Shown here: positions 16,704-42,818 of the stretch, piece after piece
Position numbering within the stretch: position 1 is the stretch's first letter
How the letters are laid out: every line of letters begins with the position of its first letter
Origin: Candidatus Hydrothermarchaeales archaeon
GTDB lineage: Archaea; Hydrothermarchaeota; Hydrothermarchaeia; Hydrothermarchaeales; JAZGAD01
Direction of reading: 5' to 3'
Length of the DNA: 64,000 nucleotides
Assembly: GCA_036444275.1 (NCBI GenBank)
Contig: JAZGAD010000048.1
Location: 92 to 64,091, forward strand
Notes under the pieces: generated by a model
What the model saw: only the letters and a program-made list of their open reading frames with translations
What the model was told of the DNA's origin: nothing
The model's database searches: none
Position numbers and translations under genes: made by a program

Positions 16704-18620
16704 ATGAGGGCCCTAACGATTGCGCTTGTACTCCTACTGTTATCTCTCCCAGCAACATATGCAGGGGACCTCGACGTAGCCCGTGAAGCTGGGAAGGAGT
16801 ACGCGAAGTTCCGGGAAAGGATAGCTGTTGAAGGCCCATTCTACGTAGCTGGCCAGCCTTACTATGTTCTGGATTACGTTTCTAGAGAAGGTGTCAGGGC
16901 ATCACTTGTCTATGATTATAGTGCAGGAGAATTCATCTCTGGAGAGACTGCAAGCAAGGTGCTGGCGACCCGAGATTTGAAGAGCCTCTTGCTCTGGGAT
17001 CCGCTCTTCTATGCCATTGGCGACGCCGATAAGATCCCGCTTGCAGCTAGATATGAGACACAGAACGTCCGCAACTTTGCAGAGTTCGCTACTCTGAGCA
17101 AGGAAGAGAGAGAACAGTTAGAGCAATTCCTTGCCGACTATGAGCAGACCGCCAGGGATATAGCAGAAGTAAGCAGGATCACCAACTCTATGCTCTACCC
17201 AAAAGGCATAGAGTTCATCTACAGGAGGTCATCCCCATATATCACCATCAACATCAGAGATACAGCTACCGAGGGACACTTCTCATACGAGGGCTTCAAG
17301 GAGTTGATAGATTCATATAACACTGTTTATTCTGATTATCAACGCCTGATATTAGACTTGCGTGTGTTCGCAGGAGAGCTTGAGGAATACCTACCAGGCG
17401 AGACGATAAGGGAAAAATGGGAGGTGGAGATGACCAAGGAGAGTCTTCTGACAGAGGTATCTCTAGCTGGGCAGAACGCGCGCTTACTTAAGGGGGAGAT
17501 AGACGTGCGAAATGATATAGCATCATGGCCTTACAATGAAACAATAGGCACCCCTGAAGAGGTAGGTCGAAAGGAATTTCCAAAGGGCTTTTTAATTCTA
17601 TGGATACTCCTAGCTGTTGCAGCCTTGCTGTTCTACTTCAGGAAACGCCCGCCTGCAATACTGCTTCTAGTAGTGTGTGCAACCCTAGTAGGGACCTTGG
17701 GTCAAGCTCTCGTGGAACCTCAAATCCCCAAGCCTGAAGAGTTAATCTCTAAGAAGATAACCGATACAAGCGCAGTGCCGGTAACAATACTGGCGGAAGG
17801 CGTAGACGAGAGTACGATAAGAGAACTCCTCAAGGGTTTCCCTCTCCTCCTCGAGGGTCAGGGAGTCTATATCAGGGGGCCGTACTATTACTACGGCAGG
17901 CCCAACTACCTCTTTGATGTGGTTGAAAACAATGTATCCACAGGCTTCGCGTTCCTCATCGATGCCACTACCCTGCGTTTCGTTGGGGATCAACGCATGG
18001 CATTCCAGCTCTTTAAGGCAATCTTCTTATCAGACATGGTGCAGCGCCAGCCTCTCTACACGGGCGTGGACCATGAGGCTATTGCAGATACTGCAGCCGA
18101 GTCCGCACCACCCCTAGATGTGTTCTTAGCGAACCTCTCGACGAATATCGAGGAAGGGCAGACGCTGGAGACGAGCCTCGTGGAAAAGCCTGATTTTGAA
18201 ACAGTAATGAAGCTGACAAAGAATTACATCAAAACCTTCATGCTCCTGCATAACCTGGAGAAGCTTACATCGCCAGAGGAAACGAGGAGTATGACCCAAG
18301 GATTCTCTGAACAAAAAACTGCCATCGAGGCATATGCCAGAGCCATGAGGGGCCTCTCAGCCGACGAGTACCTAGAAGCGAGAAGGGCCCAGTATATAGG
18401 GCGCAGTTTGAATAGGCTGCCCCTGATGAAAAAGCTATCAGCGATGGGGATGTCACCAAGTAGAGCCCAAGTTGTGCATGACCTGACGAGCGACCTCCTC
18501 TATGACAACATATTCCTATGGCGCTTGGAGAAGCCGAGAGATCCAAACCTCTTCGCCCGCCTAGCCTTTAAAGAAGGTACATTTACCCTACCGGGGACAG
18601 CGAACGTCACGCAGAGTTAG
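16704..18620 (+). CDS. Hypothetical membrane-anchored secreted protein with two related halves
   Basis: 638 aa with an N-terminal signal peptide, a central pair of hydrophobic helices and a repeated GPxYxxGxPxY motif. Confidence 0.85.
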   Translation: MRALTIALVLLLLSLPATYAGDLDVAREAGKEYAKFRERIAVEGPFYVAGQPYYVLDYVSREGVRASLVYDYSAGEFISGETASKVLATRDLKSLLLWDPLFYAIGDADKIPLAARYETQNVRNFAEFATLSKEEREQLEQFLADYEQTARDIAEVSRITNSMLYPKGIEFIYRRSSPYITINIRDTATEGHFSYEGFKELIDSYNTVYSDYQRLILDLRVFAGELEEYLPGETIREKWEVEMTKESLLTEVSLAGQNARLLKGEIDVRNDIASWPYNETIGTPEEVGRKEFPKGFLILWILLAVAALLFYFRKRPPAILLLVVCATLVGTLGQALVEPQIPKPEELISKKITDTSAVPVTILAEGVDESTIRELLKGFPLLLEGQGVYIRGPYYYYGRPNYLFDVVENNVSTGFAFLIDATTLRFVGDQRMAFQLFKAIFLSDMVQRQPLYTGVDHEAIADTAAESAPPLDVFLANLSTNIEEGQTLETSLVEKPDFETVMKLTKNYIKTFMLLHNLEKLTSPEETRSMTQGFSEQKTAIEAYARAMRGLSADEYLEARRAQYIGRSLNRLPLMKKLSAMGMSPSRAQVVHDLTSDLLYDNIFLWRLEKPRDPNLFARLAFKEGTFTLPGTANVTQS

Positions 18621-18823: not shown

Positions 18824-19204
18824 ATGACTATTTACGAATATTACATACCAGTAGCCATATTCATAATTGTTGGATTGCTTTTCCCGATTGCTGCGATGGT
18901 GTCCTCCTGGCTTTTTAGAGTCAAAAATCCCTATCCTGAGAAGCTCACGACCTTTGAATGCGGTGAGATACCAATTGGCAATGCACAGATCCAATTCGAC
19001 ATACAGTATTACATGTTCGCAATCCTCTTCGTAGTGTTTGACATAGAGACTGTCTTCCTCTATCCATGGGCGCTGGTATTCCCAGAACTCGGGATGCTAG
19101 CTGTGCTCGAGATGATCCTTTTCATCGCTATCTTAGCACTCGGCTTGATATACGCCTGGAAAAAGGGAGTCCTAGAATGGATGCCCCTTACCTGGAGGGA
19201 TTAA
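18824..19204 (+). CDS. nuoA: Complex I-like subunit A (FpoA/NuoA)
   Basis: KLTTFECGE, YYMFAILFVVFDIETVFLYPWA, YAWKKGVLEW. Confidence 0.95.
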   Translation: MTIYEYYIPVAIFIIVGLLFPIAAMVSSWLFRVKNPYPEKLTTFECGEIPIGNAQIQFDIQYYMFAILFVVFDIETVFLYPWALVFPELGMLAVLEMILFIAILALGLIYAWKKGVLEWMPLTWRD

Positions 19205-19732
19205 ATGAAGGTTCCAGTGGCCTTTGCAAAAAAAGACGACCTCTTGAAGATCGCAGAAGACGAAGATAAGAGGTCCGCTGTCGTAGAAAGCATGAAAAAC
19301 GGCAGGGACTACCTTATCAGGTGGGGGCGTAAATCATCATTATGGGGGTATGCCTTCGGCCTCGCCTGCTGTTCAGTAGAGATGATATGTTTTGGAGCAG
19401 CGAGGTGGGACGCTGACAGGTTCGGCGTGATCTTCAGAGGCTCCCCTAGGCAGTCAGACCTCATGATCGTGGGGGGCACTGTAACCAAGATGATGGCACC
19501 CCGCATAAGGCGTTTGTACCATCAGATGGCAGAGCCCAGGTGGGTAATCGCCACTGGAGAATGCGCCATAACAGGCGGCCCGTTTTGGGATTCCTACAGC
19601 ATCGTAATGGGCACAGATAAAATAATCCCAGTAGACGTTGTTATCCCGGGTTGCCCAGCTAATCCAGATGCGCTTTTCGACGGCATAATAAAATTGCAGA
19701 AGAAGATAATGGAAGGGGACGCTGGAAGGTGA
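19205..19732 (+). CDS. nuoB: Complex I-like subunit B (FpoB/NuoB)
   Basis: [28 protein letters not shown]. Confidence 0.95.
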
Positions 19733-21405
19733 ATGAGGTAATAGATGCGCTGAAGATGCGCTTTAAGGAGGATATCCTCCATATATATGAGCAAAGAGAG
19801 AAGAGGATAGTTGCTGCCGTAAAGAAAGCAAGCATATTAGATGTCTGCAGGTATCTAAAAGAAGAGCTGGATTTTGATCATCTCTCCACCATTGCAGCTG
19901 TTGACCGCTCAAGGCTCGTCTCTGGTATAGACCACGATGGAAGCATGATGTATCGCAAGGATTTCGAGGTCACCTATCATATCTGGTCCTATTCCAGGCA
20001 TACGATAGTCGAGTTGAAAACCATTATACCATGGAATTCCCCAAAGCTGCCTTCAGTTACTCCAATATGGAGGTCTGCGAACTGGCATGAGCGGGAGCAT
20101 TATGATTTGATGGGCATAGTATTTGAGGGGCATCCGAATCTGCGGAGGATCCTATTACCACAGAACTGGAAGGGCCATCCGCTGAGAAAGAACTATAAAC
20201 TTGCTGAGAGCTCCTGGTTTCTAGAGAAAGATGAAGCTGAGTCAGAGGGAAGTGAACTCGATGAGCAGGTGCCTTATTTCGAGCTTGATGATAAACTAGC
20301 AGATAAAGTGAAAGAGGCGCAGGTCTCGGAGATGATAGTCAGATGCGGTCCAGTGCATCCCGGCATACATGGGCCTTGGCTGATAAACCTTAAACTTGAC
20401 GGCGAGATCATAGTCGATGTTGATATTCAAATCGGCTACATACATAGGGGGCTGGAAAAGATTGCCGAGAACAGGACTTACCAGCAGTATCTGCCGGTTT
20501 CTGATAGGTACTGCTGGCTTACAGCGATATCGAATAATCTCTCCTATGTGCTTGCAGTCGAGGACTTAATGGATATTAAGCCGACTGAGAGGGCAGAGTA
20601 TATCAGGGTGATCGTGCTGGAGCTCAACCGGCTCGCGAGCCACCTGATATGGCTGGGTGCAATGGGCATAGATCTAGGCAACATCTCAGGGCTCATCTAT
20701 CCCTTCAGAGAACGGGAATGGATGCTCGATCTCTTGGAGATGGCCTCGGGTAACAGGATGAACTACAACTTCGGAAGGTTCGGGGGAGTACTCTTCGACT
20801 TGGATGAGAAATTCATAAAAAAGGCGAAGAAGACCATGGAGATCTTCATGCCGAGGCTGCAGGAATATGCGGACTTCTTCAGCGGCAGTAGGATATGGAG
20901 GGCTAGGACGCAGGGTGTAGGTGAACTAACAGCAAAGGATGCAAAAAATCTGGGTGTCACAGGGCCGATGCTCAGAGCTACTGGTGTAAAGGCTGACACG
21001 AGGAAAGACGATCCTTATGCTACCTATGAAGAGATCGACTTCGAGATTCCAACGAGGAAGGATGGCGATGCATTTGCAATGTATGAGGTAAGGATGGAAG
21101 AGATGAGGATAAGCACAGAGATAATTGACCAAGCCCTAGATAACCTCCCAAATGGCCCTTACCAGGAGGAAGTAGGAAGGGTTGAACCCAGTGGAGAGGC
21201 CCTCAGTAGGATAGAGGAGCCGAGGGGGGAGATCGCAACATACTTGGTCGGCGACGGTAGCGACAAGCCGTATAGGCTTAAGGTCCGGGCAGCAGAGTTT
21301 GTTAATATATCAGCGCTGCCCCACCTCGTGCGGGGATTTAAGATCCCTGATTTAATAGCAATCATAGGAGGCATGGACCCATGTCTTGGGGGGATAGACA
21401 GGTAA
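19729..21405 (+). CDS. nuoCD: Fused complex I-like subunit C/D
   Basis: [32 protein letters not shown] (C), then [18 protein letters not shown] and EEPRGE (D). No complete NiFe CxxC motifs. Confidence 0.95.
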
Positions 21406-21439: not shown

Positions 21440-22567
21440 ATGGGACTTTATGCTGAGGACATGGATCGGCTCTACCATGGGAGAACCGCATTTATCCAGC
21501 TAGTCGTGGCTGCTGCTACGATGGTTGTAGCTCTCGTTGGCGCCTCTTTGCTTGTAAGCTATATCGGGAGCCTTGCCCCTCCCTGGTTTTGGGATAATCC
21601 CTGGATCAGAGGCATTATAGGAGCGATTTTGTGGGCAGCGATCGCCGGTGTAGGCGGTCTGTACTTAACATGGCTTGAAAGAAAGGTGATGGCGAGGATC
21701 CAAGTAAGATACGGGCCGAATAGATGGGGAAAATACGGGCTCCTGCAACCGTTTGCAGACGCCATTAAATTACTGACAAAAGAAGATGTGATACTGGATG
21801 CAGCGGACAAAGCGGTCTTCAGAGCTGCGCCTATCGTTGCCTTTGCGCCTGCATTTCTAGCATTTGCAGCTGTCCCTGTTACCGCGGAGCTCATTGTTTC
21901 TAGAACTGATATAGGTATCTTATTCATAATCGCCGTGAGTTCTCTAACTCCTATAGGCGCTATCATGGCTGGATGGGGGCCAAATAATAAATGGAACCTC
22001 ATAGGAGGGATGCGCTTCGCAGCCCAAATGATAAGCTACGAGGTGCCGATGGTACTGGCGATCATAGGCCCGATAGCCCTTGCACGATCCCTTAACGGCG
22101 TAACGATAGTCATGGCACAGGCTGGCTACTGGTTTGGATTTATCCCAAAGTGGTATGTCTTCCTCCAGCCCCTGGGCTTTCTCATATTCCTCATAGCGTT
22201 CATGGCAGAAACCTGCAGGATACCCTTTGATCTTCCAGAGGCCGAAAATGAATTGGTCGGTGGCTGGATAACCGAGTACAGCGGCATGAAGTTTGTCATG
22301 CTCCTCCTCGTCGAATACGTTCATTTAATCGCCGGCGGCGCCTTGGTTGTGGTGTTGTTCCTAGGGGGCTGGCAGGGGCCATTCTTGCCTCCTCTGGCTT
22401 GGTTTATGATAAAGTTGCTAGCTGTGATTTTCTTCATGATGCTGGTTAGGGCAACGCACTTCAGGACGAGGATAGATCAACTCCTTGCTTTGGGCTGGAA
22501 AGTACTCCTTCCACTAGCACTTCTCAACATAGGCATAACAGGAATTATATTGGCATTGACGGTGTAG
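21440..22567 (+). CDS. nuoH: Complex I-like subunit H
   Basis: ERKVMARIQVRYGPNR, GLLQPFADAIKLLTKE, RIPFDLPEAENELVGGWITEYSG. Confidence 0.95.
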   Translation: MGLYAEDMDRLYHGRTAFIQLVVAAATMVVALVGASLLVSYIGSLAPPWFWDNPWIRGIIGAILWAAIAGVGGLYLTWLERKVMARIQVRYGPNRWGKYGLLQPFADAIKLLTKEDVILDAADKAVFRAAPIVAFAPAFLAFAAVPVTAELIVSRTDIGILFIIAVSSLTPIGAIMAGWGPNNKWNLIGGMRFAAQMISYEVPMVLAIIGPIALARSLNGVTIVMAQAGYWFGFIPKWYVFLQPLGFLIFLIAFMAETCRIPFDLPEAENELVGGWITEYSGMKFVMLLLVEYVHLIAGGALVVVLFLGGWQGPFLPPLAWFMIKLLAVIFFMMLVRATHFRTRIDQLLALGWKVLLPLALLNIGITGIILALTV

Positions 22568-22570: not shown

Positions 22571-24247
22571 ATGGTATTAAAACCCACGATAATAGGATTC
22601 AAGCACCTCTTTAGAAGACCGGTGACGATACAGTATCCCTTCGAGAAACTGAAGGTCTCAGAGAAATACAGAGGCGTACCAGCTGTGAATCCAGATGCAT
22701 GCACTGCTTGCGGTAGGTGCATAGAAGTATGCCCCAATGACTGTACCATACTTGTAGATTGGGAGGGTGGCCAGAGAAAGGGAAACCAGGTGCCGAATTT
22801 GTATACCTCACGCTGCATGTTCTGCGGCCTATGCGTTGAGGTCTGTCCCACTGGAGCACGAGTGAGTACGCGGGAATATGAGTTGGCGGAGTATACGCGA
22901 GAAGAATCCCTCTGGAGTCCTGAGCGTATGCTACCTCTCGTTATAGATAGAACCGTATCACCTATCGTTAAGGCACCAGAAATAAACGAGGATGAATGTG
23001 TAAACTGCTTGGAATGCAAGCGGATCTGCCCTGAAGATGCGATTTCGAATATCGATAAAGGTGACAAGAGGACGCTCGTGATAGACTATGATAAATGCAC
23101 CTTCTGCGGGAAATGCATAGACATATGCCCGCCTCAAGCATTGAGATATGCGGAGAAAGAGATTAAAGAGGGCATGAAGCTCGAGTGGAAGAAGAAGATA
23201 CCGGTTAAGGACATAGAAGTCAAAAATTACTTCGAGCTGCTAAATAAGAAGGTGATAGAGTCCAACTGGTGCTCCCACTGCACTGCATGCATAGTGGCAT
23301 GCCCAGTCGAGAGGATAAAGGGAAAAGACGTGGAGATATACGAGGACGAGAGTATTGAGTGCAGCGACTGCAGTCTCTGTGTTCGTTCTTGCCCAAGATA
23401 TGACTACGAGAATCCAAATGGTCTAGGCGATTATCTAGAGGTATTCTCAGCTGGCTCAAAGAGGTTCGTAGGCCAAGATGGAGCTATGGTAACAGAGCTA
23501 CTAACGAGTGCGATGGAGATGGGCATCATAGACACAGCTATCGTGGTTTCTGGAGACAAGCACTGGCACCCGGTGCTTAGGATTGCGCACACACCTGAGG
23601 AAGTAACCGCTGGTTTGAAGACCAAGTATGCCCTGGCTGACGTTCTCTCTATTTTGAAGCTTGCTGACAGTCAGACTAGAAAGGGTATTGGAATTGTGGG
23701 TACGCCGTGCCAGATAGAGGGCTTTAGGAGGCATGCCGAGAAGACCAAATTCTTCACATCAAAAGTAAAGCTGGTTGTAGGCATCTTCTGCTTTGAGAAT
23801 TTCTATTACAAGAGGTTCTACGAGGACTTTCTAGGCGGACACGGCATAGTTGCAAAGGATATAGAGAGGGCTGACATGAAGAAAGGCGTGCTCACCGTGG
23901 ATACAAAAGACGGGAAGATATACGAGTTCAAGGTCGCCGAGTTCGAGCACTATGCACTGCAGGGCTGCATGATCTGCCAGCACTTCATCAACATGACCGC
24001 TGACATTTCTGTGGGTGGAAGCGGATCCGAAATGGGTTTCAGTAGCGTATTCGTCAGGAGGGAAAACGTGACGCCCATAATAGAGTACATGAGAGAAAAG
24101 GGTTATATCGAAGAAGCTGGGGAAGAACAGATGGAGAAGGTTTTGAAGGTGAATAATTTTATGTGCAGGTTTAAGATTAAGAAGCATCCGATTGAGCCCT
24201 ATCTAGAGGCAAGAGGTAAAGCAGGAGTCGTTGCAGATGGCAGCTGA
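22571..24247 (+). CDS. NuoI fused to an extra 2x[4Fe-4S] ferredoxin and an FpoF/FrhB F420-binding domain
   Basis: NuoI N-terminus VTIQYPFEK..KYRG, six CxxCxxCxxxCP motifs, and FrhB motifs GQDGAMVT, VGTPCQI, GIFCFENF, GCMIC and ADISVG. Confidence 0.9.
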   Translation: MVLKPTIIGFKHLFRRPVTIQYPFEKLKVSEKYRGVPAVNPDACTACGRCIEVCPNDCTILVDWEGGQRKGNQVPNLYTSRCMFCGLCVEVCPTGARVSTREYELAEYTREESLWSPERMLPLVIDRTVSPIVKAPEINEDECVNCLECKRICPEDAISNIDKGDKRTLVIDYDKCTFCGKCIDICPPQALRYAEKEIKEGMKLEWKKKIPVKDIEVKNYFELLNKKVIESNWCSHCTACIVACPVERIKGKDVEIYEDESIECSDCSLCVRSCPRYDYENPNGLGDYLEVFSAGSKRFVGQDGAMVTELLTSAMEMGIIDTAIVVSGDKHWHPVLRIAHTPEEVTAGLKTKYALADVLSILKLADSQTRKGIGIVGTPCQIEGFRRHAEKTKFFTSKVKLVVGIFCFENFYYKRFYEDFLGGHGIVAKDIERADMKKGVLTVDTKDGKIYEFKVAEFEHYALQGCMICQHFINMTADISVGGSGSEMGFSSVFVRRENVTPIIEYMREKGYIEEAGEEQMEKVLKVNNFMCRFKIKKHPIEPYLEARGKAGVVADGS

Positions 24248-24731
24248 TTTAGCAGTATTTTTAATAATAGCTCTGATTACGATAGTTGCATCTGTTTTAG
24301 TTCTAGAATCCAAAGAGATATTCCATGCCGCATTATTTTTGGCCTTATCCTTCATTGGCGTAGCCGGATTATTTGTACTCCTCGGGGCTGAATTCCTAGC
24401 TGCTATCCAGGTTTTGATCTATGCAGGGGCTGTGATTATACTGGTCTTATTTGCAATCGTACTGACGAAGAGGGACAAGGTAGGAGCGGGACTGGAAGAG
24501 CATGACAGCAGCTTGTTGAGGTTCGTAATAGCTGCGGCGTTTGTATTCCTACTGGCGCTGCCCATTGCAAGTGTCGCCTGGCCTACCCACATGGTGGTTG
24601 AGTTTTCTACAGCCGCAATAGGGATTTCGATGTTCACAGAGTATGTTATCCCGTTTGAGATAATATCATTGGTATTGCTAGCTGCTTTGATCGGCGCGGT
24701 TTTTCTTGCGAAGAGGGAGGATGCATCGTGA
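24237..24731 (+). CDS. nuoJ: Complex I-like subunit J
   Basis: AEFLAAIQVLIYAGAVIILVLFAIVL, PFEIISLVLLAALIGA. Confidence 0.93.
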   Translation: MAADLAVFLIIALITIVASVLVLESKEIFHAALFLALSFIGVAGLFVLLGAEFLAAIQVLIYAGAVIILVLFAIVLTKRDKVGAGLEEHDSSLLRFVIAAAFVFLLALPIASVAWPTHMVVEFSTAAIGISMFTEYVIPFEIISLVLLAALIGAVFLAKREDAS

Positions 24732-25036
24732 TTCCACTCCTCTATTACTTGCTCCTATCGACCGTTCTCTTTGGAATCGGAGCCTACGGGGTCATGACGA
24801 AGAGAAACGCAGTACGCGTGCTGATGGCGATCGAGATAATGATGAGTGCAGCGACGATAAACCTCGTGGCCTTCTCGGCGTATATGCCACACTTAAATAT
24901 ATCTGGACAGATATTCGCATTGTTCGTAATAGCAATTGCTGCAGCTGAAAGCTGTATTGGACTAGCGATATACATCCAGCTGTTCCGTGTCTACGGCACT
25001 ATTGATGTTAGAGAGATGAGTACCCTGAAGTGGTAA
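24728..25036 (+). CDS. nuoK: Complex I-like subunit K
   Basis: LMAIEIM, GQIFALFVIAIAAAE. Confidence 0.93.
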   Translation: MIPLLYYLLLSTVLFGIGAYGVMTKRNAVRVLMAIEIMMSAATINLVAFSAYMPHLNISGQIFALFVIAIAAAESCIGLAIYIQLFRVYGTIDVREMSTLKW

Positions 25037-25050
25037 TAGGAAGGTTTGAC

Positions 25051-25149
25051 ATGCCTGAAGCTGAAGTGATACATTCGCTAAGACCGTTTACCCCACTGCA
25101 ACTAGCGCATACAGCTGTTAAAGAGTTCTTGCACATCGGAGGATTATGA
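25051..25149 (+). pseudogene. 32-aa in-frame deletion remnant of an MrpD-like subunit
   Basis: MPEAEVIHSLRP and FTPLQLAHTAVKEFLHIGGL match the N-terminus (MVAEVVQSIRP) and C-terminus (YTPFRLTHAAVRQFLHMPALF) of the 38180-39682 protein. Confidence 0.75.
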
Positions 25150-25550
25150 TGAGAAAGATAAGAAAGAAATTGGCTACAACAAATGTTGCAAAAAAAATCT
25201 TTGCCATTGCCCTGGTATTTATCTTTATTTCAATCTTACTCTCTCCTGCATGGGCGGTCAGCTCCTCAACTTCAGAGCTTAAAAAGTCTCATGGAGAAGG
25301 CGGTGTTCAGGAACCTGAAGGTGTTATGAAGCATGGAGAAGCTGTAGCTGTAGAAAGGAAAGCTGAAGTCCACGAGGAACGCGATCATGAGGTAGCAGAT
25401 CATGAACACGAGGCGGCTCACGAAGAGCCCTGGTGGAGATTTCGTGGATTTGAAGCCGTTTTTGCGGTCTTCGCCTGCCTTTATTTCTTTTTGGCGGTGA
25501 AGGGGCTACCCTTGATACTGGAAGACAAATCGATGGGCAGGAGACATTAG
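25146..25550 (+). CDS. Small membrane protein with His/Glu-rich loop (Mrp-operon-type accessory)
   Basis: N-terminal TM/signal, HEERDHEVADHEHEAAHEE, then a WWRFRGFEAVFAVFACL TM helix. Confidence 0.75.
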   Translation: MMRKIRKKLATTNVAKKIFAIALVFIFISILLSPAWAVSSSTSELKKSHGEGGVQEPEGVMKHGEAVAVERKAEVHEERDHEVADHEHEAAHEEPWWRFRGFEAVFAVFACLYFFLAVKGLPLILEDKSMGRRH

Positions 25551-25553
25551 TAG

Positions 25554-27761
25554 ATGGATACCATAATCCTCCCGGCACTGATATATATTATAGGTGCGTG
25601 CTTGATCCCCTTTTTGAAGGGGAAGACCAAGAAGGCTTTCCTAGTCTTAGTACCTTTGATAGTCCTAGTAGAGGTACTCTTGATTAAGGCGCCTATGACT
25701 GGGTGGCGTTTTTCCTATCTAGATTTCACTATCACCCTATTCTACGCCGATAGATTGAGCATGTTGATGGGGTACATATTCAGCATCATAGGCTTCCTGT
25801 GTATCCTCTACTCCCTCCATGTCGAAGATGATCAACATCACGTCTTCACCTTCCTCTATGTGGGCGCCGCATTGGGCGTCGTATATGCCGGGGACTTCTT
25901 CTCCTTCCTGGTGTTCTGGGAAATAATGGCCATCACCGGTGCCGGGATCATATGGGTAAAGAGGGACGAAAAGGCGGTAAAGGCCGGGTTTAGATACGTG
26001 ATGATGCACGTCATAGGTGGGGCCGTGCTGATGGCGGGCATACTGGTGCACTATGCTTCTACCGGTTCCATCGTCATGGGTCCAGTGGAGTCGGGTATAG
26101 CAGCGGCTTTGATCCTCTTTGGAATCGGCTTGAATGCGGCATTCATCCCGATCCACACATGGCTGCCTGATGGCTATCCCTCTGCCCCTCTCACTGGGAG
26201 CATCTTCCTCTGCGTATTCACCACCAAGAGCGCGGTCTATGCCCTCGCTAGAACATCTCACGGCCCATCCATGTTCGTCGCTTATATGGGGGGTTTGATG
26301 GCGGTATACGGCGTGACCTTTGCGTTGATGCAGGGCAATGCAAGGAAGTTGTTGTCCTACCACGTCATCAGCCAGGTGGGCTACATGGTGGCGGCCGTGG
26401 GCATAGGAACCGCCATCGGTGTAAATGGCGCCTTCTTCCATGTCTTCAATCACATCCTCTACAAGTCCCTCCTCTTCATGTGCATAGGCGCCGTCATCTA
26501 CCGCACGGGCATAGAAGATCTCAAAGAGCTCGGCGGACTCGCGAGAAAGATGCCGATAACGACTCTAACTGCCATCGTCGCAGCGGCCTCCATTTCCGGT
26601 GTGCCCTTCTTCAATGGTTTTGCGAGCAAGGGTCTGATATTCGAGGGCGCCCACAACATACACGGTCTTTACATACTCCTGGAGATAGCGGCAGTGGGCA
26701 CCTTCCTATCCTTCTGCAAATTCATCTACTTCGGGTTCTTGAGGAAGAGGGATGTAGAGCTCGATGTCAGCGATCCTCCTTTGCATATGTCCCTCTCCAT
26801 GGCGATAACAGCCTTCATGTGCTTTTTCATCGGCGTCTATCCCCCGTTGGTAGCTACTATATTGCCATTCGAGACGCCCTTCCACTATTACGGGTTGGGA
26901 CACCTCTTTGGCGCATTCCTCCTCCTGGGAACCACAGCGGTGATCTTCTGGAAAGGGAAGAATCTATTCGCGCCCCACAAGTGGGTGATTCGCGATTTTG
27001 ATCGTATCTATAGAAGGGCCGCCACCGGCTTCTTCTGGTTATGCAATGTCCCGGGGGTTAAGATAGACAGGATGATAAACAGGGGCTACGAGGGCGGCAG
27101 CAGAAAGCTGATGACGGTCGCCATACCAGCGACGGAATTCGACAGGGTGATAGACAATGCCTATGTGGGCACGGGTAAGAGGCTGGTTGAGACAGCTGCG
27201 CCCGCTACGGAATTTGACAGGATGATAGACAAGGGATATATTAAAACCGGTGAGAAGCTTGTGGATGCAGTTGGTCCCCCCGCTACGGAATTTGATAAGA
27301 TGATAGACAAGGGATACGTAGAGACCGGCGAGAAGTTTGTGGATAGCATCGGCCGTGGTAAGGTGAGATACGAGCCTGGAGAGTCTGAATTTTTCGACGT
27401 GAAAAGTGAGGAGGAGTTTCGGTTGTTTGGGAGATACTCTGTTACCATTCCTAGTTTTGGGGAAAGGATGCCTTTGAAGAAGAGCGAGGGGATCTTCTTT
27501 GAGTTCACTAATCATGTAGCCGCATTTGACCTGAAGGTCATCGATGGGGTTGTAAATCTATGTGGCATGGGTGTCTGGGGCATTTCAAAGATATCGGATA
27601 TATTCGATATAAGAGTTGTCGATGGTACTGTGAATGGCATCGCTGATGCACTTCGTGTGTTCGGGAGCAAGCTGCGGAAACCCGAGACAGGGATAATACA
27701 TGACTATGCAAGTGCAGTGATAATGGGAGTAATCGCTTTGGGGATAGTAATACTAACCTAG
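25554..27761 (+). CDS. Antiporter-like subunit in the NuoL position: MrpD-type core with NuoL-type C-terminus
   Basis: Core WEIM, HTWLPDGYP, FTTKSA, LSYHVISQVGYM. About four ~25-aa PATEFDRxID repeats. C-terminal VIDGVVN...VVDGTVNG...LRKPETGIIHDY. Confidence 0.85.
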   Translation: MDTIILPALIYIIGACLIPFLKGKTKKAFLVLVPLIVLVEVLLIKAPMTGWRFSYLDFTITLFYADRLSMLMGYIFSIIGFLCILYSLHVEDDQHHVFTFLYVGAALGVVYAGDFFSFLVFWEIMAITGAGIIWVKRDEKAVKAGFRYVMMHVIGGAVLMAGILVHYASTGSIVMGPVESGIAAALILFGIGLNAAFIPIHTWLPDGYPSAPLTGSIFLCVFTTKSAVYALARTSHGPSMFVAYMGGLMAVYGVTFALMQGNARKLLSYHVISQVGYMVAAVGIGTAIGVNGAFFHVFNHILYKSLLFMCIGAVIYRTGIEDLKELGGLARKMPITTLTAIVAAASISGVPFFNGFASKGLIFEGAHNIHGLYILLEIAAVGTFLSFCKFIYFGFLRKRDVELDVSDPPLHMSLSMAITAFMCFFIGVYPPLVATILPFETPFHYYGLGHLFGAFLLLGTTAVIFWKGKNLFAPHKWVIRDFDRIYRRAATGFFWLCNVPGVKIDRMINRGYEGGSRKLMTVAIPATEFDRVIDNAYVGTGKRLVETAAPATEFDRMIDKGYIKTGEKLVDAVGPPATEFDKMIDKGYVETGEKFVDSIGRGKVRYEPGESEFFDVKSEEEFRLFGRYSVTIPSFGERMPLKKSEGIFFEFTNHVAAFDLKVIDGVVNLCGMGVWGISKISDIFDIRVVDGTVNGIADALRVFGSKLRKPETGIIHDYASAVIMGVIALGIVILT

Positions 27762-27777: not shown

Positions 27778-29250
27778 ATGTTTCCTATACTGTCTGCGAT
27801 GATTTTGTTGCCCTTGGTGGGCGCATGTGTAGGCTACCTTATAGGTAGAAAGAATGTGAGGACTGCGAAGTTTTTTGATGTAGCAATAATGCTTTTGACC
27901 TTTCTAATATCAGTCATAGCATATACACTGATTGACTTTTCAAAGCCTGGGTATCACCTCTTGGAGAGCATGCCCTGGGCGAGCTCCCTGGGCGTATCCT
28001 ACACCCTAGGCGTAGACGGCATTAGCTATCCCTTGGTGCTACTCACTACCTTTATCTCTATACTCGCGATGGCCTCGTCGTGGCATATAACCGATAGGAC
28101 GAACACGCATTATGCACTGTTGCTCCTGTTGGAGGCAGCCCTCTTAGGCGTCTTTGTATCGCTGGATCTCTTCCTATTCTTCATCTTTTGGGAGGTCGTC
28201 TTGGTGCCGATGTATTTCTTAATAGGGATCTGGGGCGGACCAAGGAGGGAGTACGCAGCTATAAAATTCTTTATATATACGCACCTCGGAGGGCTTTTTG
28301 TCTTGCTTTCAATCATAGCCTTATATTTCAATACAATCCCACACACTTTCAGCATGATCGAGATAGCGAAGGTTGCGCCTGGATTCTCGCAAAGTTTCCA
28401 GACCATTGTGTTCGCTGCCTTGTTCTTCGGTTTTGCGATAAAGCTCCCGATTTTTCCCTTCCATACATGGCTGCCGGACGCCCACGTAGAGGCACCTACT
28501 GCAGGAAGCATACACCTCGCGGCACTTCTCCTAAAGATGGGTGGCTACGGCTTAATACGCATTGGAGTTATGATGGTACCAGACGGTGCTAGAGCTCTCG
28601 CTCCAGTCATGATTTTGTTGGCTGTGATAAGCGCCTTCTACGCAGCATTCTGCGCTATGGCGCAAAAAGACCTCAAGAAGATGATCGCCTATTCCAGTGT
28701 AAGCCACATGGGCTACGCCCTCCTGGGTATAGCTACATTCAACATCATAGGTATAACGGGCTCGATCTATGAGATGGTGGCACATGGATTAATAACAGGG
28801 ATGCTTTTCTTCCTGTCAGGCATCATCCACGACCACGTCGGCTCGAGGAACATAGAGGATATAATAGGTTTCGGGAAAAAGACGCCGAAGATTACGTTTG
28901 CAATCGTCATAGGGTTCTTCGGTGCTTTCGGTCTGCCCGGCCTAGCCGGATTTGTAGCCGAGTTCATGATATTTGTCGGCGCCTTTGAGGCATTCAGGTT
29001 TATAGCAATAATAGTGGTCTTCTCGATTCTCTTCACAGCGGGATACTTCCTCTGGACGCTGCAGAGACTCGCCTTTAGGACGCCGCTTCCAACACTTAAG
29101 GAGCACATCGAAGACCTGGAGTTCTGGACCGAGCTGGTACCTATCGCTATGACAATATTCCTTATAATCCTGCTTGGAATCTACCCCGCACCACTGCTGA
29201 ACATGATGGACACCTCGGTTAAAGCCCTGGTCGCTGTTCTTGGGGGATAG
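27778..29250 (+). CDS. nuoM: Complex I-like subunit M
   Basis: FWEVVLVPMYFLIGIWGG, HTWLPDAHVEAPTAGS, LLKMGGYG. Confidence 0.95.
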   Translation: MFPILSAMILLPLVGACVGYLIGRKNVRTAKFFDVAIMLLTFLISVIAYTLIDFSKPGYHLLESMPWASSLGVSYTLGVDGISYPLVLLTTFISILAMASSWHITDRTNTHYALLLLLEAALLGVFVSLDLFLFFIFWEVVLVPMYFLIGIWGGPRREYAAIKFFIYTHLGGLFVLLSIIALYFNTIPHTFSMIEIAKVAPGFSQSFQTIVFAALFFGFAIKLPIFPFHTWLPDAHVEAPTAGSIHLAALLLKMGGYGLIRIGVMMVPDGARALAPVMILLAVISAFYAAFCAMAQKDLKKMIAYSSVSHMGYALLGIATFNIIGITGSIYEMVAHGLITGMLFFLSGIIHDHVGSRNIEDIIGFGKKTPKITFAIVIGFFGAFGLPGLAGFVAEFMIFVGAFEAFRFIAIIVVFSILFTAGYFLWTLQRLAFRTPLPTLKEHIEDLEFWTELVPIAMTIFLIILLGIYPAPLLNMMDTSVKALVAVLGG

Positions 29251-29252: not shown

Positions 29253-30680
29253 ATGAATTACCTTCTAGTAGCTCCAGAACTTATCCTCGCTTCTTTTGGC
29301 ATAGTAGTACTACTCCTAGATCTATTCATAAAGGAAAAGAAACTGCTGACCTACTGGACCCTGGCTGGATTACTGACAACTCTTTTAGCGGTGTTCTACC
29401 TGCTCGGTTCCAGTGGCTTGATCTGGAACGGTATATTGATTATAGACTCGTTTTCCCTGTTCTTCAAGATCGTCTTCCTTGTTGTCGCCATCCTCGTGAC
29501 CCTCGCGTCTGCAACATACATCCAAGACGGCGATCTAGGAGAATATTTCACGCTTATCATCTTTTCTACTCTGGGGATGATGTTTGTCGCCTCCTCAGGG
29601 GAGCTGATCACCCTCTTCGTATCCCTCGAGCTCGCCACCGTGCCGACCTATGCCTTGGTGGGCTTCTTCAAGAAGGATCCTCACTCAAGCGAGGCTGCCA
29701 TAAAATACTTCATCATCGGCGCACTCTCATCTGCGATAATCGTCTTCGGCATGAGCCTAATCTATGGTGTAACCGGCTCAACGTACCTCTACGAGATCTC
29801 TGCTGCACTAAGAGAACCGGCGGTACAAGGCATGTACAACCCGGTCTTGCTTCTTGGGACTATCCTGCTGGTCGCTGGTTTTGCTTTTGAGATTGCTGCC
29901 GTGCCCTTCCACATGTGGGTCCCGGATACATACCAAGGAGCTCCGACCACAATCACGATTTTCATGGCAGCCCAGGCAGAGGCAATGGGGTTTGCAGCGA
30001 TTTTCAGGCTCTTTGGAGTCGCACTTGGGCCATTACAGCTCAACTGGCAGTCCCTCTTCATGGTTCTTGCCGTGATGACGCTGCTCCTCGGCAACCTTGT
30101 GCCACTAGTGCAGACGAGTGTGAAGCGTTTGCTGGCCTATTCCTGCATCGGGCATGCTGGCTACATTCTGATTGGCTTAGCGGTTGCCACACCCCTCGGA
30201 TTCACTGGCGGGATGTTCCATGTTTTAACATATGCATTTATGAAGGGCGGGGCTTTCCTCGTTGTAACCATGGTCTCCTACACCCTCCTCGTGGACGACA
30301 TCGATGATTACGCTGGACTGAGAGATAAGGCACCGCTTACAGCGTTTTGCATGCTCATATTCCTTCTTTCGCTCGCTGGAGTCCCACCGCTAGCTGGTTT
30401 CTGGAGCAAATTCATTATATTCTCAGCCGCAATAGAGGGGGGCGTAGCATGGCTTGCCGTATTGGGAGTTATAACAAGTGCTATATCCCTATACTACTAT
30501 GCGAGGATCATAAAAGCTATGTACCTCACCCCTACCGAGAAAATGGAGAGGATTAAGGAGCCGAAGCCCCTGCTTCTTGCCATGCTGATCGCACTAGCAG
30601 GCACTATTTTAATCGGGCTGTATCCCGAGCCTATATTGAAGTTCGTGTCAAGTGCAGTACAGAGCCTGCTCTTCTATTAA
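29253..30680 (+). CDS. nuoN: Complex I-like subunit N
   Basis: EAAIKYF, PFHMWVPDTYQGAP, KRLLAYS, SLAGVPPLAGF. Confidence 0.93.
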   Translation: MNYLLVAPELILASFGIVVLLLDLFIKEKKLLTYWTLAGLLTTLLAVFYLLGSSGLIWNGILIIDSFSLFFKIVFLVVAILVTLASATYIQDGDLGEYFTLIIFSTLGMMFVASSGELITLFVSLELATVPTYALVGFFKKDPHSSEAAIKYFIIGALSSAIIVFGMSLIYGVTGSTYLYEISAALREPAVQGMYNPVLLLGTILLVAGFAFEIAAVPFHMWVPDTYQGAPTTITIFMAAQAEAMGFAAIFRLFGVALGPLQLNWQSLFMVLAVMTLLLGNLVPLVQTSVKRLLAYSCIGHAGYILIGLAVATPLGFTGGMFHVLTYAFMKGGAFLVVTMVSYTLLVDDIDDYAGLRDKAPLTAFCMLIFLLSLAGVPPLAGFWSKFIIFSAAIEGGVAWLAVLGVITSAISLYYYARIIKAMYLTPTEKMERIKEPKPLLLAMLIALAGTILIGLYPEPILKFVSSAVQSLLFY

Positions 30681-30922: not shown

Positions 30923-32026
30923 GTGGAACATATGAGTGGTAAATATTCGCTGGGGGTTTTCGAGAGATACCTTACTGTTTGGGTGCTCTTGATGATGGCC
31001 CTGGGAACCATCATAGGCTTAGTGTTCCCGAGTGCCATTGCCATTCTTTCATCGTTTCAGATTGCCCAGGTCTCCATACCGATAGCGGTTGTCCTTTTCT
31101 TTATGATCTACCCCATGATGGTCCAGATAGATTTTTCAAAGGTGAAGGATGCTGGTAAGAGGCCCAAACCCCTTTCCCTGACCTTATTCATCAACTGGGC
31201 CGTAAAGCCCTTCTCGATGGCAGCCATCGCCTGGCTTTTCTTTAAAGTAATATACTCTGGAGTCATATCGGCAGAGACAGCCACGGAGTATTTCGCAGGC
31301 GCGGTTCTCCTTGGCGCGGCTCCATGCACTGCCATGGTCTTCGTTTGGACACACCTGGCAAAAGGGAACCTCAACTACACCTTGATACAAGTTTCGGCGA
31401 ACGACCTCGTCCTCCTGGTACTCTACGCGCCTATCGTCGGTTTCCTGCTGAAGCTCGGCTCGGTCATCGTGCCCTATAAAACAGTGTTTTACTCCGTGCT
31501 CATCTACGTGGGCATACCTCTCGTCGCGGGCTATCTATCTCGGACGTGGGTCCTTAAGAACAAGGGGGTGCACTGGCTTGAGAACGTGTTCCTCAAAGCC
31601 CTTCACAACGTGACGATCGCTGGACTCCTGGTAACCCTCGTGCTTATCTTTATGTTCCAGGGAAAGACAATTGTCGAGCACCCCCAAGATATCTTTCTTA
31701 TCGCGATTCCTTTGGCTTTGCAGACTTTTCTCATATTTTCTCTTGGCTATACGATGGCGAGGCGTCTGTGCATCAGATACCAAGATGCGGCGCCGGCCGC
31801 CCTAGTGGGAGCAAGCAATTTCTTCGAACTCGCAGTAGCCACGGCGCTTGTGCTCTTCGGCTTAGACTCGGGTGCCACTCTCGTGACGGTTGTAGGTGTT
31901 CTCGTCGAGGTGCCCATCATGCTGGCACTCGTGAGCATATGCCTCAGGACTCAATACTTATTCCAGGACGAGTGTTTCTATTCCGAAGAAAAATCAAGGA
32001 GCTGGTGGGGATGTTTGAGAGGATAG
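30923..32026 (+). CDS. acr3: Arsenite efflux transporter Acr3
   Basis: FERYLTVWV, MIYPMM, INWAVKPF, APCTAMVFVW, GASNFFELAVA, VVGVLVEVP. Confidence 0.95.
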   Translation: MEHMSGKYSLGVFERYLTVWVLLMMALGTIIGLVFPSAIAILSSFQIAQVSIPIAVVLFFMIYPMMVQIDFSKVKDAGKRPKPLSLTLFINWAVKPFSMAAIAWLFFKVIYSGVISAETATEYFAGAVLLGAAPCTAMVFVWTHLAKGNLNYTLIQVSANDLVLLVLYAPIVGFLLKLGSVIVPYKTVFYSVLIYVGIPLVAGYLSRTWVLKNKGVHWLENVFLKALHNVTIAGLLVTLVLIFMFQGKTIVEHPQDIFLIAIPLALQTFLIFSLGYTMARRLCIRYQDAAPAALVGASNFFELAVATALVLFGLDSGATLVTVVGVLVEVPIMLALVSICLRTQYLFQDECFYSEEKSRSWWGCLRG

Positions 32027-32051: not shown

Positions 32052-32228
32052 GCCCTTGCTTCTTGTCCTGCTGATCGCACTAAAAGGCACGATTTTCTAT
32101 TAACAAACATCTGCCTACCCCACTAATCACTAACTGACTTTGTATATCACCACACCACCATAGGAATCCAAGAATACGTTTGAGACCTCATACTTATCGA
32201 AGTAATTATGCGCATAATCAGGGGTTGT
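32052..32228 (+). repeat. Direct repeat copy B right of acr3
   Basis: Degenerate nuoN 3' end with an internal deletion, followed by the intact 3' end of the downstream gene. Confidence 0.9.
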
Positions 32229-34148
32229 GAATTCATAGGAGTCTATCAGGATATGCGTTATATCCTCATCTTCGATTATTCTGTCAGCGTCTGATGGTTT
32301 GCTTGGTATTGGGTATGTCGGTCTCTGTGCAAAGAAATTTATCTGCCTGAATGACTGGGTCATAATCCTCGAATTCTCAGGGGTGTTTTCTCTCAGCCAA
32401 TGGCCAGCGTCTTCCAGCAGTATGTACTTTGGGCATGCATAATACTCTATAGAGTTGGTCGCAATTACAATCTGGCTCAATACACCGATTAATAAAACTA
32501 AAGCTACGAGTCTATTCTCCGTAAGGCTATCGAGGAATCTCATTCCCAGATAGATTACTGGGAAAAACGCAGCTAATATGTATCTTTCAACCTTAATCGG
32601 CCACATAACAACTGGCAGAATCGTTAATACTAACAGAAGGACGTATAGGTTATTATCAGTCCCAACTTTTCCCTTTTTAAATTTAAACTCTCTCAGGATC
32701 TCTAAAATGGCTAGAACGAGGAATAAATGTAAAGGCCAGGTGTTAAAGGAGGGGCGAGCGATAGCGAGAAACTCTCCTATATTTACGCTGATATGCGATA
32801 GGTAGCGAGTCGAGTGTTCCACAAGAGGCGTTCCATGATTCAAAAGGGACCACACACTCCAAGGAAGCATAATTAATATGCCGGTTATTAGCGACAAAGC
32901 AAGGGGTTTTTCTCTTTTGACTAAACCATGGAAAATAATGGGCAGTATATACAGTAGTGCAATATACTTTGTCATAAAGGCGAGCGCCATAAAAACCCCT
33001 AAAACAAGATACGCATGTCGAGATGCTTGCCTATTATGATGGTGAATGTCTTCATAGATTAGGTAGCAGATCATTACAAACATTAAGACGGGTATATCTC
33101 TCAGGACATATACAGAGGATTTGTAGATCAAAGGGATAGAGAAGAACAACAGGGACCCGATAAAGGCATATTGGGGGCTGATTTTTTTGTTAAGTATGAA
33201 ATAGACGGTTAACACTAAAACAGTAGCTATTAGTACTGTAAGGAGGTATATTCCCTTCTCACCGACCACGCCCAACATGACCGCCAGAAGTATGGGGAAT
33301 ACTGGTGCAACATCCCCCGGGGCGCTGTTGAAACTGTATTCCCTGTTATTGACTAAAGAGGATCCAAGAGAGGCGTATAGCCCACCATCGTAACTGAGTC
33401 CGCATTTGAAGGAAAATGGAACCAATAGAGAAAAAGTCAGGAGCGCTAAAAGCAGCGGATATAGTATCTTCAAGGGCAATATCGAATCTAACACTGCAGA
33501 TATGGATTTTTTTCTTATGATAAGCACAAGAAAAATGGAGATTACCGTGAAAAAGAATATTAAGCCACGTAATATCTTAAACATGACCTCATGCTGCTTG
33601 GATTGATACTCTATAAATCCCTCGGAATCCATTGAGGATCTATAGAATTGGGATGCCTTCCCGTAGTACCTGTATGCATTTAGATAATCCTTCTTCTGGT
33701 AGGATTTCTCCCCGAGTTCAGCGTATATAAAGGCTATTCTGCCCCTATAATGCCTAGCCGCCTTTGTGTACCCCATACGTCTATAGATGGGGAGCGCCTC
33801 AAGGTAGTACTCTACTGCACTTAAGTCATCTCCGCTTTTCCGTTTCTCCTGAGCTAGTTCCACATATATATGGGCTACTATATCTCGGTAATGTAAAGCC
33901 TGGCCTAGAGCATTCGTTTCCTCGTATGCAGCTGCTGCCTTGTTGAAGTCCTCTATCGCACCCAGCTTATCCCCAGTTTCATATTTCATCTGAGCTGAGC
34001 TAACATAGTCTTCTGCCTCATTTGGAAACGCCCAAGAAACTTCTAGCGTCAGAAAACAAAACAATGTGAAAAGCAGCAAGACCAAGGTTTTATGGGCTAG
34101 CCTATTTTCTTCCATCACAATCCCCTTCGACCTCAGTATTGCTGGCAT
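32130..34148 (-). CDS. TPR/SNAP-like repeat domain fused to GT-C (PMT/ArnT-like) glycosyltransferase
   Basis: Signal peptide and helical repeats (AIEDFNKAAAAYEE, AVEYYLEALPIYRRMG), then YDGGLYASLG, PVFPILLA, RDIP, ALAFMTKY and ERYIL across many TM helices. Start probably MEENRL. Confidence 0.75.
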   Translation of the reverse strand: MPAILRSKGIVMEENRLAHKTLVLLLFTLFCFLTLEVSWAFPNEAEDYVSSAQMKYETGDKLGAIEDFNKAAAAYEETNALGQALHYRDIVAHIYVELAQEKRKSGDDLSAVEYYLEALPIYRRMGYTKAARHYRGRIAFIYAELGEKSYQKKDYLNAYRYYGKASQFYRSSMDSEGFIEYQSKQHEVMFKILRGLIFFFTVISIFLVLIIRKKSISAVLDSILPLKILYPLLLALLTFSLLVPFSFKCGLSYDGGLYASLGSSLVNNREYSFNSAPGDVAPVFPILLAVMLGVVGEKGIYLLTVLIATVLVLTVYFILNKKISPQYAFIGSLLFFSIPLIYKSSVYVLRDIPVLMFVMICYLIYEDIHHHNRQASRHAYLVLGVFMALAFMTKYIALLYILPIIFHGLVKREKPLALSLITGILIMLPWSVWSLLNHGTPLVEHSTRYLSHISVNIGEFLAIARPSFNTWPLHLFLVLAILEILREFKFKKGKVGTDNNLYVLLLVLTILPVVMWPIKVERYILAAFFPVIYLGMRFLDSLTENRLVALVLLIGVLSQIVIATNSIEYYACPKYILLEDAGHWLRENTPENSRIMTQSFRQINFFAQRPTYPIPSKPSDADRIIEDEDITHILIDSYEFTTPDYAHNYFDKYEVSNVFLDSYGGVVIYKVS

Positions 34149-34968: not shown

Positions 34969-34976
34969 AGCATCAC

Positions 34977-38161: not shown

Positions 38162-38179
38162 ACTCTATCTATGCTCCTA

Positions 38180-39682: not shown

Positions 39683-39696
39683 TTCATCACCTCAAA

Positions 39697-41175: not shown

Positions 41176-41315
41176 GCAGCCACCCTTCTAGTTTCTACGC
41201 AACCATGGGTAAGCCGTTCTACTTACTTATAACTTTCTATTCGTCTTGTTAATCACTCCTAAGTGATGACCTAATATTTATTATTAATTATTATAATTTT
41301 AGATTTTAGGATGAA

Positions 41316-42806: not shown

Positions 42807-42818
42807 CTGCCCCCTCCC

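Follow-up and report, generated by a model that had tools for sequence, protein, structure and literature searches.

A probable F420H2:quinone oxidoreductase of a Hydrothermarchaeales archaeon with a green-type membrane arm and a relic pump gene

What occupies the place of NuoL in a complex I operon that lacks nuoL? The question is raised by a 64,000-nucleotide stretch of DNA (hereafter, the window) from a Candidatus Hydrothermarchaeales archaeon (GenBank assembly GCA_036444275.1, contig JAZGAD010000048.1, positions 92 to 64,091, forward strand), which carries an operon running from nuoA to nuoN. The genome is a draft, metagenome-type assembly of 61 contigs that is 81% complete. Between nuoK and nuoM we identified the relic of a gene for an MrpD-like protein (denoted X), a gene for a small membrane protein (denoted s), and a gene for an antiporter-like protein of 735 amino acids (aa; denoted L*). 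Rhizobia are known to encode a 'green complex I' in which two MrpD-like subunits replace NuoL, as described in a published account (PMC9040806, citing Degli Esposti and Martinez-Romero 2016). Collectively, our analyses suggest that the window likely encodes an F420H2:quinone oxidoreductase of the Fqo/Fpo kind with a membrane arm of this green type, in which X has been reduced to a stub. The features that replace nuoL, and the two genes that follow them, are given below in window positions.

25052-25150, + strand: relic of X, 32 codons, MrpD-like (equivalent to MrpD1 of green complex I), recognized by blastn against contig C21 of the same genome, protein alignment, and direct reading
25146-25550, + strand: small membrane protein s, 134 aa, recognized by family alignment, with two predicted helices
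25554-27761, + strand: L*, 735 aa, whole open reading frame (ORF), NF009310/PRK12668
25554-26990, + strand: core of L* (residues 1-479), a predicted antiporter-like pump module, from NF009310, tree clade, and AlphaFold2 (AF2)
27051-27362, + strand: repeat array of L*, ~4 units of 25-26 aa in the lateral-helix region, from Tandem Repeats Finder (TRF) and self-matches
27510-27761, + strand: NuoL-type end of the lateral helix and final transmembrane helix of L*, from matches to NuoL/NdhF/FpoL C-termini
27778-29250, + strand: nuoM, TIGR01972, 532 bits, over the cut-off
29253-30680, + strand: nuoN, TIGR01770, 406 bits, over the cut-off

L* is affiliated with NF009310/PRK12668, a family named 'Na+/H+ antiporter subunit D', with a score of 609 bits (cut-off 564). 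Its scores on models of NuoL and FpoL were far below the respective cut-offs (127 bits on TIGR01974, cut-off 407.5; 124 on NF005141, cut-off 556; 131 on NF040617, cut-off 1050), whereas true NuoL of relatives scored 587-651 bits on NuoL models. No canonical NuoL was detected in the operon, and among eight matches to PF00361 in the 81%-complete genome, the seven scanned with NCBIfam all fell below the NuoL cut-offs; the eighth is nuoM. The nearest of the seven to a NuoL cut-off was a 496-aa MrpD (41316-42806), with 207 bits on TIGR01974. The closest solved structures by sequence were MbsH', MbhH, MbsH, MrpD, and MrpA, ahead of ND5/NuoL, and Foldseek did not separate MrpA, NdhF, NuoL, and MrpD as the nearest fold (E-values of 1e-22 to 1e-17). 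No solved green-type complex was among the solved chains matched by sequence or by Foldseek.

Phylogenetic reconstruction of the core alone (IQ-TREE quick search; 70 antiporter-like proteins; 473 columns), with NCBIfam-checked proteins of relatives rather than a named outside set as references, placed L* (24 rows) and canonical NuoL (10 rows) in separate clades, each with a long stem and 100% support in the Shimodaira-Hasegawa-like approximate likelihood ratio test (SH-aLRT). M, N/MrpD, and X likewise formed separate clades. L*, NuoL, and the Mrp A-like protein fell on one side of the tree, with support of just 84-89 and with long branches meeting at L*/NuoL. In an alignment of 77 L* sequences, K225, K359, and K389 were invariant and E123 and K304 were conserved in at least 90%; by their place in the fold these Glu and Lys are putatively assigned to the pump channel, and L* is predicted to keep the conserved Glu and Lys of a working pump. 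An AF2 model based on the same 77 sequences had a predicted local distance difference test (pLDDT) score >90 over most of residues 11-470.

The MrpD of Mrp antiporters is encoded together with MrpA, B, C, E, F, and G, has 14 helices, and is not known to have a lateral helix. L*, in contrast, is encoded in a nuo operon, and it bears both a lateral helix and one more helix at its end. When searched alone, the last 106 residues of L* matched only the C-terminal ends of six profiles of NuoL/NdhF/FpoL (E-values of 2e-6 to 3e-3) and none of Mrp, and the 150 residues that precede them had no profile match. This end comprises two FDxxV[IV]DGxVN units followed by RKPETGIIHDYA and a final transmembrane helix, and has the organization of canonical NuoL/FpoL (a lateral helix with IDGxVNG ... 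QTG..Y and a last transmembrane helix). The NuoL-type motif (FDxxVIDGxVNG ... QTG..Y) was present in seven of seven L* genes that precede nuoM (the window, L039, L042, L049, a cut L* in L047 on the contig of L003, a cut L* in L002 on the contig of L063, and plasmid pSymA of Sinorhizobium meliloti) and in none of the eight without nuoM next (L038, L043, L044, L045, L040, two in L001, and a second, 718-aa L* of L047; four of these stand before nuoN, three are in Mrp operons, and one is a second-cassette copy). Since several of these loci are close kin, the association of tail type with nuoM is a pattern and not a statistic. Outside its own clade, the last 110 residues of L* scored ~41 bits against canonical NuoL tails and ~37 bits against other L* tails; with scores this close in so short a tail, a chimeric origin is not supported.

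The protein encoded between X and L*, s, has an N-terminal helix, a His/Glu-rich loop of ~55 aa, and a C-terminal helix with WWRFRGFEAVFAV; a two-helix small protein at this position is a feature of green complex I. It had no match among Pfam or NCBIfam families. It is, however, 52% identical over 71 aa to an ORF preceding the L* of a relative, and small ORFs of this family (W..PGF.AVYGF) precede L* at 11 of 11 junctions, which represent 11 distinct loci including the window and pSymA (12 alignment rows). Every gap before L* in relatives holds such an ORF (68-85 codons, one N-terminal helix, motif W..PGF.AVYGF...EDYYD). The His/Glu-rich loop is restricted to the clade of the window and is inserted relative to the rest of the family.

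Straight after nuoK, where green complex I has an MrpD-like X of the PRK08375.1-1 type, the window holds only a relic. The relic ORF (MPEAEVIHSLRP joined to FTPLQLAHTAVKEFLHIGGL) comprises the first 12 and the last ~20 codons of X, and its stop codon TGA overlaps the ATG of the s gene (ATGA). An intact X was identified on contig C21 of the same genome as an ORF of 513 aa, the likely start of which is the eighth codon (506 aa). Positions 51-154 of C21 matched window positions 24982-25085 (103 of 104 identical) and positions 1577-1612 matched 25083-25118 (35 of 36 identical) in blastn; the relic has lost 1,425 bp of X, cleanly and in frame, and the two sides of the joint have 2-3 bases in common. 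The intact X scored 609 bits on PRK08375.1-1, under the cut-off of 663, and its DNA is 74% identical to that of the X in the Mrp operon of the window (blastn). On C21 (L007; positions 1-1640) the intact X is preceded by a copy of the final 55 nucleotides of nuoK and the spacer, with unrelated sequence upstream, an arrangement that looks like a segmental duplication that took X out of the operon.

The deletion is also present in other populations and has a counterpart in a relative. No public sequencing run contained >16% of the sampled words of the window, and contigs of four runs from related populations were aligned instead. Contigs of run X2 (24878-25115) and run X1 (25047-25115) bridged the joint without a gap, and contigs of runs X3 and X4 departed from the window at 25085 and continued into the interior of a full-length X. 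Both alleles, deleted and full-length, are thus present among public metagenome contigs; the left boundary of the C21 type, at 24982, was also found in a contig of run X1. In relatives G027, G029, and G009, which are of the same order and share the fused F420 input subunit described below, an intact X (501-504 aa) comes after nuoK. Relative G025 (L059; G025:C3 1-540, minus strand), which has the fusion as well, carries a different relic between nuoK and s, in which ~75 N-terminal codons with a frameshift are joined to the C-terminal end. Because its breakpoints differ from those in the window, X has been lost at least twice.

These results bear out much of an earlier note on this DNA, made from the sequence alone. 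It had proposed that no canonical NuoL lies between nuoK and nuoM, as the scores of L* on PRK12668, NuoL, and FpoL models confirm, and that the slot holds a collapsed mrpD remnant, which corresponds to both ends of the X on C21. The small WW..GF.A.F membrane protein and the MrpD-like core with a NuoL-type C-terminus that it described are s and L*. It also suggested that an Mrp-NuoL hybrid pump may couple F420H2 oxidation to Na+ translocation or have altered stoichiometry. Clustering of the protein with ordinary NuoL, which the note had named as the outcome that would speak against it, was not recovered in the tree, where the L* core and the NuoL of relatives are fully separated.

Homologs of the cassette were then sought in 41 genomes (that of the window and 40 relatives, mostly of the same order), in which ORFs of relatives were labeled by their best match to window proteins and key ones were checked with NCBIfam. 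A protein over the PRK12668 cut-off was detected in 8 of the 41 genomes. The order nuoK, X, s, L*, (nuoM), nuoN was identified in seven loci of five genomes of the same order, although some loci end at contig ends, and the X of relatives scored 693-706 bits on PRK08375.1-1 where tested, over the cut-off. A separate search for related loci yielded six loci in genome contigs and one distant locus in metagenome contigs; most contexts came from the genome search. They include the following.

G010 (two loci), G018 (two loci), G003, G012, and G013: nuoA to nuoK, X, L*, with or without nuoM, nuoN
G005: true Mrp operon with mrpE, F, G, two DUF4040 pieces, B, C, D, then X, s, and, last, L*
Dehalococcoidia locus: Mrp operon with D, s, L*, X, L*

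G005 also encodes a separate canonical nuo operon with a NuoL/FpoL of 662 aa. In two further genomes, G022 (L047/L003) and G009 (L063/L002), the operon goes on after nuoN with a second X (499-503 aa), s (101 aa), and L* (718 aa), amounting to up to six pump genes per operon; the tail of this second L* resembles that of an 824-aa subunit encoded in the Mrp operon of the window.

Outside the Archaea, a tblastn search of plasmids with L* returned 399 records, with Sinorhizobium and Rhizobium leading. On pSymA of S. meliloti the order is nuoJ, nuoK, an MrpD-family gene (487 aa), a hypothetical gene (84 aa), a 'Na+/H+ antiporter subunit D' gene (586 aa), nuoM, nuoN, and nuoA-G. The L* of the window is 42% identical to that of pSymA over residues 1-509, and residues 676-728 of its tail align to residues 524-576 of the pSymA protein with 40% identity; X is 54% identical to the X of pSymA, and the 84-aa hypothetical protein belongs to the same small family as s. 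Because the order on pSymA and the families of X, s, and L* match, the cassette of the window is of the known green type. Like green complex I, the operon lacks a canonical nuoL and encodes a PRK12668 L* with a lateral helix, followed by nuoM and nuoN.

The remaining genes of the operon, which bear on the identity of the electron donor, are as follows.

18824-19204, + strand: nuoA, named by operon position and matches of homologs in relatives
19205-19732, + strand: nuoB, named in the same way
19729-21405, + strand: fused nuoCD, 558 aa, Pfam Complex1_30kDa and Complex1_49kDa on a single protein
21440-22567, + strand: nuoH, named by operon position and matches of homologs in relatives
22571-24247, + strand: NuoI-FrhB/FqoF fusion, 558 aa, Pfam FrhB_FdhB_N, FrhB_FdhB_C, and Fer4; NCBIfam NuoI and FpoF
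24231-24731, + strand: nuoJ, Pfam Oxidored_q3
24728-25036, + strand: nuoK, Pfam Oxidored_q2

The product of 22571-24247 is a NuoI joined via two extra ferredoxin-type 4Fe-4S domains to an F420-binding domain of the FrhB/FqoF type (residues 7-120 match NCBIfam NuoI and residues 227-530 match FpoF). Apart from that of the window, 27 clusters of fused, full-length homologs were identified (96-100% coverage); these carry mixed names, either 'NuoI' or 'F420 hydrogenase beta'. Among the 41 genomes the full-length fusion was encoded in seven, namely that of the window and six of six genomes of one family. Proteins that bear the name F420H2:quinone oxidoreductase share 40-44% identity with its F domain. 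The operon thus combines a NuoB/C/D/I module with an FrhB-type subunit, as do Fqo and Fpo, by way of the fusion to NuoI. The presence of an FrhB/FqoF domain on subunit I makes F420H2 a plausible electron donor, and the fusion is probably the electron-input subunit.

From this gene content we infer how the complex may be assembled and may operate. F420H2 would be oxidized at the FqoF domain on subunit I, and electrons would reach a quinone-type acceptor, positioned at the CD/H site, by way of the Fe-S clusters in subunits I and B. A membrane arm comprising A/J/K, N, M, and L* would pump ions, with L* in the distal position and its lateral helix and last helix clamping M and N, and with s, judging from gene order, bound to L*. 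As a consequence of the deletion in X, the arm (A/J/K, N, M, L*, and s) would have three antiporter-type pumps, like ordinary complex I, and a fourth only if the intact X of C21 were supplied in trans. The stub retains its ribosome-binding context together with the stop codon that overlaps the start of s, and its survival is probably owed solely to the need for s and L* to be translated.

The arm of L* is unusually built. Its repeats (consensus P-ATEFDxMIDKGYxxTGEKLVxxxx; TRF period of 78, 86% matches) contribute to an insertion of ~154 residues that, relative to the L* of pSymA, separates the core from the NuoL-type end, and the L* of relatives have more repeats and lengths of 747-771 aa. As read from the sequences, the repeat motif FDxMIDxGY resembles the helix motif FDxxVIDGxVN. 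AF2 modeled the repeats as separate helices of 19-29 residues, followed by helices at 653-707 (55 residues) and 715-734, all with a pLDDT of 32-67; the hydrophobic moments of the predicted tail helices were moderate (0.34-0.46). Three tandem FDxxVIDGxVN units of ~27 aa were also apparent in the canonical NuoL of relative G001 (L050; G001:C68 737-2779; 680 aa), and duplication of helix units appears not to be confined to L*.

Similar repeats occur in a complete Mrp-type operon of the window (35687-45239, minus strand), which comprises mrpE, F, G, two DUF4040 pieces, B, C, and four antiporter-like genes (496, 492, 500, and 824 aa). The last of these, an MrpA-like gene at 35687-38161, encodes a long tail with the same 25-aa repeats as L*. 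The segment concerned is as follows.

36171-36385, - strand: repeat module inside the 824-aa MrpA-like gene, 84% identical over 215 bp to the repeat region of L* (27066-27280) in blastn

The rest of the L* gene had no further nucleotide match to this MrpA-like gene in blastn. Tails may be exchanged between other paralogs as well: two L* paralogs on one 32-kb metagenome contig, P0003 and P0006 (771 and 720 aa), are 100% identical over residues 1-534 and have unrelated tails, a pattern that could reflect a swap of tails, recent conversion of the core between the genes, or an effect of assembly. Because they share a core and differ in tail, it seems that tail exchange or core conversion between paralogs occurs.

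Taking these observations together, we considered whether the units of 25-26 aa are duplicates of the lateral helix that form an extensible tether common to the L* of Fqo and the neighboring MrpA-like subunit, and that let pump modules be added, dropped, or shared. We regard this as doubtful. If it were true, the number of ions pumped per electron pair would be tunable, repeated and independent loss of X would be one tuning step, and the second X-s-L* cassette after nuoN, with up to six pump genes, or an Fqo-Mrp supercomplex would be further examples.

Several lines of evidence weigh against the preferred interpretation of an Fqo/Fpo-type enzyme with a green-type arm and a stub of X. The 61-contig, 81%-complete draft leaves room for a canonical nuoL or a second complex elsewhere in the genome. 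Relative G001, of the same family, has a canonical NuoL (603 bits), and NuoM and NuoN of the window group in the tree with those of another family; on these two grounds the history of the operon could be one of lateral transfer or of two paralogous operon types that coexist in the order. AF2 modeled the tail as a whole with low confidence and gave no confident model for residues 480-735. At ~26 aa per pump, as proposed for complexes of the 2M and Manganitrophus type, L* would be far too long for an arm without X, which leaves the repeats unexplained. Finally, the public contigs that bridge the joint reach just 30 letters past 25085 (under a 31-letter rule; 32 letters if the joint is at 25083), and C21 starts just 50 bp upstream of the duplicated end of nuoK, such that the intact X may lie elsewhere and may belong to another cell line.

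These points bear differently on four alternative explanations. The earlier note had suggested that an Mrp segment recombined into nuoL, which in its strongest form would be a recent, genome-specific event: part of the neighboring Mrp operon (minus strand, 35.7-45.2 kb) would have entered nuoL and given rise to a unique hybrid pump. The 84%-identical repeats in two genes 9 kb apart that otherwise have no nucleotide match, the 74% identity of the C21 X to the X of the Mrp operon, and the shared core and divergent tails of P0003 and P0006 are all consistent with such exchange. Yet the order K-X-s-L*-M-N is common to other genomes of the order and to rhizobial plasmids, the cores of L* (609 bits on PRK12668) and of the Mrp A-like protein (280 bits) represent different subfamilies, and the tree sets the two apart. 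Because the layout recurs in the order and in rhizobia and the cores are of different subfamilies, replacement of NuoL is older than the genome of the window, and a local, one-off origin is quite unlikely; at most, the repeat segment alone may have been exchanged locally. Of the suggestion in the note, then, kinship with Mrp stands, given that X is of PRK08375.1-1, L* is of PRK12668, and the trio ends the Mrp operon of G005, whereas neither a genome-specific event nor a chimeric tail is supported, the latter given the nearly equal tail scores. That L* might instead be a divergent archaeal NuoL/FpoL, with its MrpD name an artefact of annotation, is suggested by its place at the L position, its NuoL-type lateral and final helices, its position on the MrpA/NuoL side of the tree, and the similar top scores of MrpA, NdhF, and NuoL chains in Foldseek. 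This is highly improbable in light of the bit scores, the fully supported and separate clade of true NuoL, the closest solved sequences (MbsH', MbhH, and MrpD/MrpA before ND5/NuoL), and the presence of the PRK12668 family in Mrp operons too.

The other two explanations concern X itself. An artefact of assembly or binning, with a full-length X between nuoK and s on the true chromosome, would be in keeping with a metagenome-type draft, with a second contig that holds an intact X, the first 104 upstream-plus-coding bases of which are near-identical to the window, and with related populations in which nuoK is followed by full-length X. We nevertheless give it very little credence, since the joint is clean, in frame, and has 2-3 shared bases, each flank has a mismatch to C21, C21 opens with 50 bp unrelated to nuoK, and the sequence downstream on C21 differs from that of the window. 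Moreover, contigs of two other public runs bridge the identical joint, and the independent relic of a relative has other breakpoints. Destruction of X here and in G025 might alternatively signal decay of the cassette, or of the operon as a whole, to the point where no working enzyme is encoded. Against this, the 12 other genes from nuoA to nuoN are all open and of normal length, L* retains the invariant charged residues of its family, gene overlaps and short spacers are intact, and the relic has kept both its reading frame and its coupling to s, all of which makes decay very unlikely. An Fqo/Fpo-type enzyme with a green-type arm and a stub of X therefore remains the interpretation that we favor.

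Other genes flank the operon. The large ORF upstream, at 16704-18620 (+ strand; 638 aa), had no Pfam match. The next gene after nuoN is the following.

30923-32026: ACR3/SBF-type transporter, a Pfam-level call

A further large ORF at 32130-34148 (- strand; 672 aa) had no NCBIfam match, and three small ORFs after the 824-aa gene (35268-35573, 34977-35267, and 34489-35154) had no family matches.

The wider questions touched by this locus are the modularity of the pump arm of complex I and the number of ions pumped per electron pair. This lineage provides natural experiments on one cassette coupled to F420-dependent input, with X intact, deleted in the window, and independently deleted in a relative. 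Further natural variation includes one or two cassettes per operon, one pump core with alternative tails, and lateral arms of ~100 to ~290 residues. The locus further illustrates how NCBIfam labels as 'Na+/H+ antiporter subunit D' what is predicted to be an L-type clamp subunit of respiratory complexes.

Replacement of NuoL by an X-s-L* cassette is already known from rhizobia; the stub of X and the long, repeat-built arm are particular to the window. The literature searched, in which subscription journals were thinly covered, yielded no account of a green-type complex that is archaeal or F420-linked, which is not proof that none has been published. The complex predicted for the window resembles the green complex I of pSymA in the order nuoK, X, s, L*, nuoM, nuoN, in the three families concerned, and in the NuoL-type tail of L*. 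It differs in that X is a 32-codon relic, that L* has the ~154-aa repeat insertion (735 versus 586 aa), that s has the ~55-aa His/Glu-rich loop and lacks the EDYYD end, that the host is an archaeon, and that in place of NuoEFG the input module is an FqoF domain joined to subunit I. Like the Fqo and Fpo of Archaeoglobi, ANME-1, and Methanosarcina, it has an 11-subunit core without NuoEFG and an FrhB-type F420 subunit, but here FqoF is fused to subunit I and the L subunit is of PRK12668 and not FpoL (131 bits versus a cut-off of 1050).

In Mrp (CPA3) operons with a split MrpA, such as those of the window itself, G005, and the Dehalococcoidia locus, X, s, and L* or a repeat-bearing MrpA-like subunit likewise end the operon; the cassette of the window, in contrast, lies in a nuo/fqo operon, where MrpB, C, E, F, and G are absent beside it, and its L* carries a NuoL-type anchor that Mrp-linked L* lack. 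As described in PMC9040806, Complex_I_3 of Candidatus Manganitrophaceae and the 2M complex I of Nitrospira also have two MrpD-like subunits in the place of NuoL and a lateral helix that changes in length in steps of ~26 residues, with a 26-aa insertion accompanying the extra pump subunit. Whereas those complexes have one such insertion per extra pump, the window combines about six units of extra length with the loss of a pump. Because a longer arm here accompanies pump loss, the 26-aa rule of Manganitrophaceae and Nitrospira does not explain this archaeal arm.

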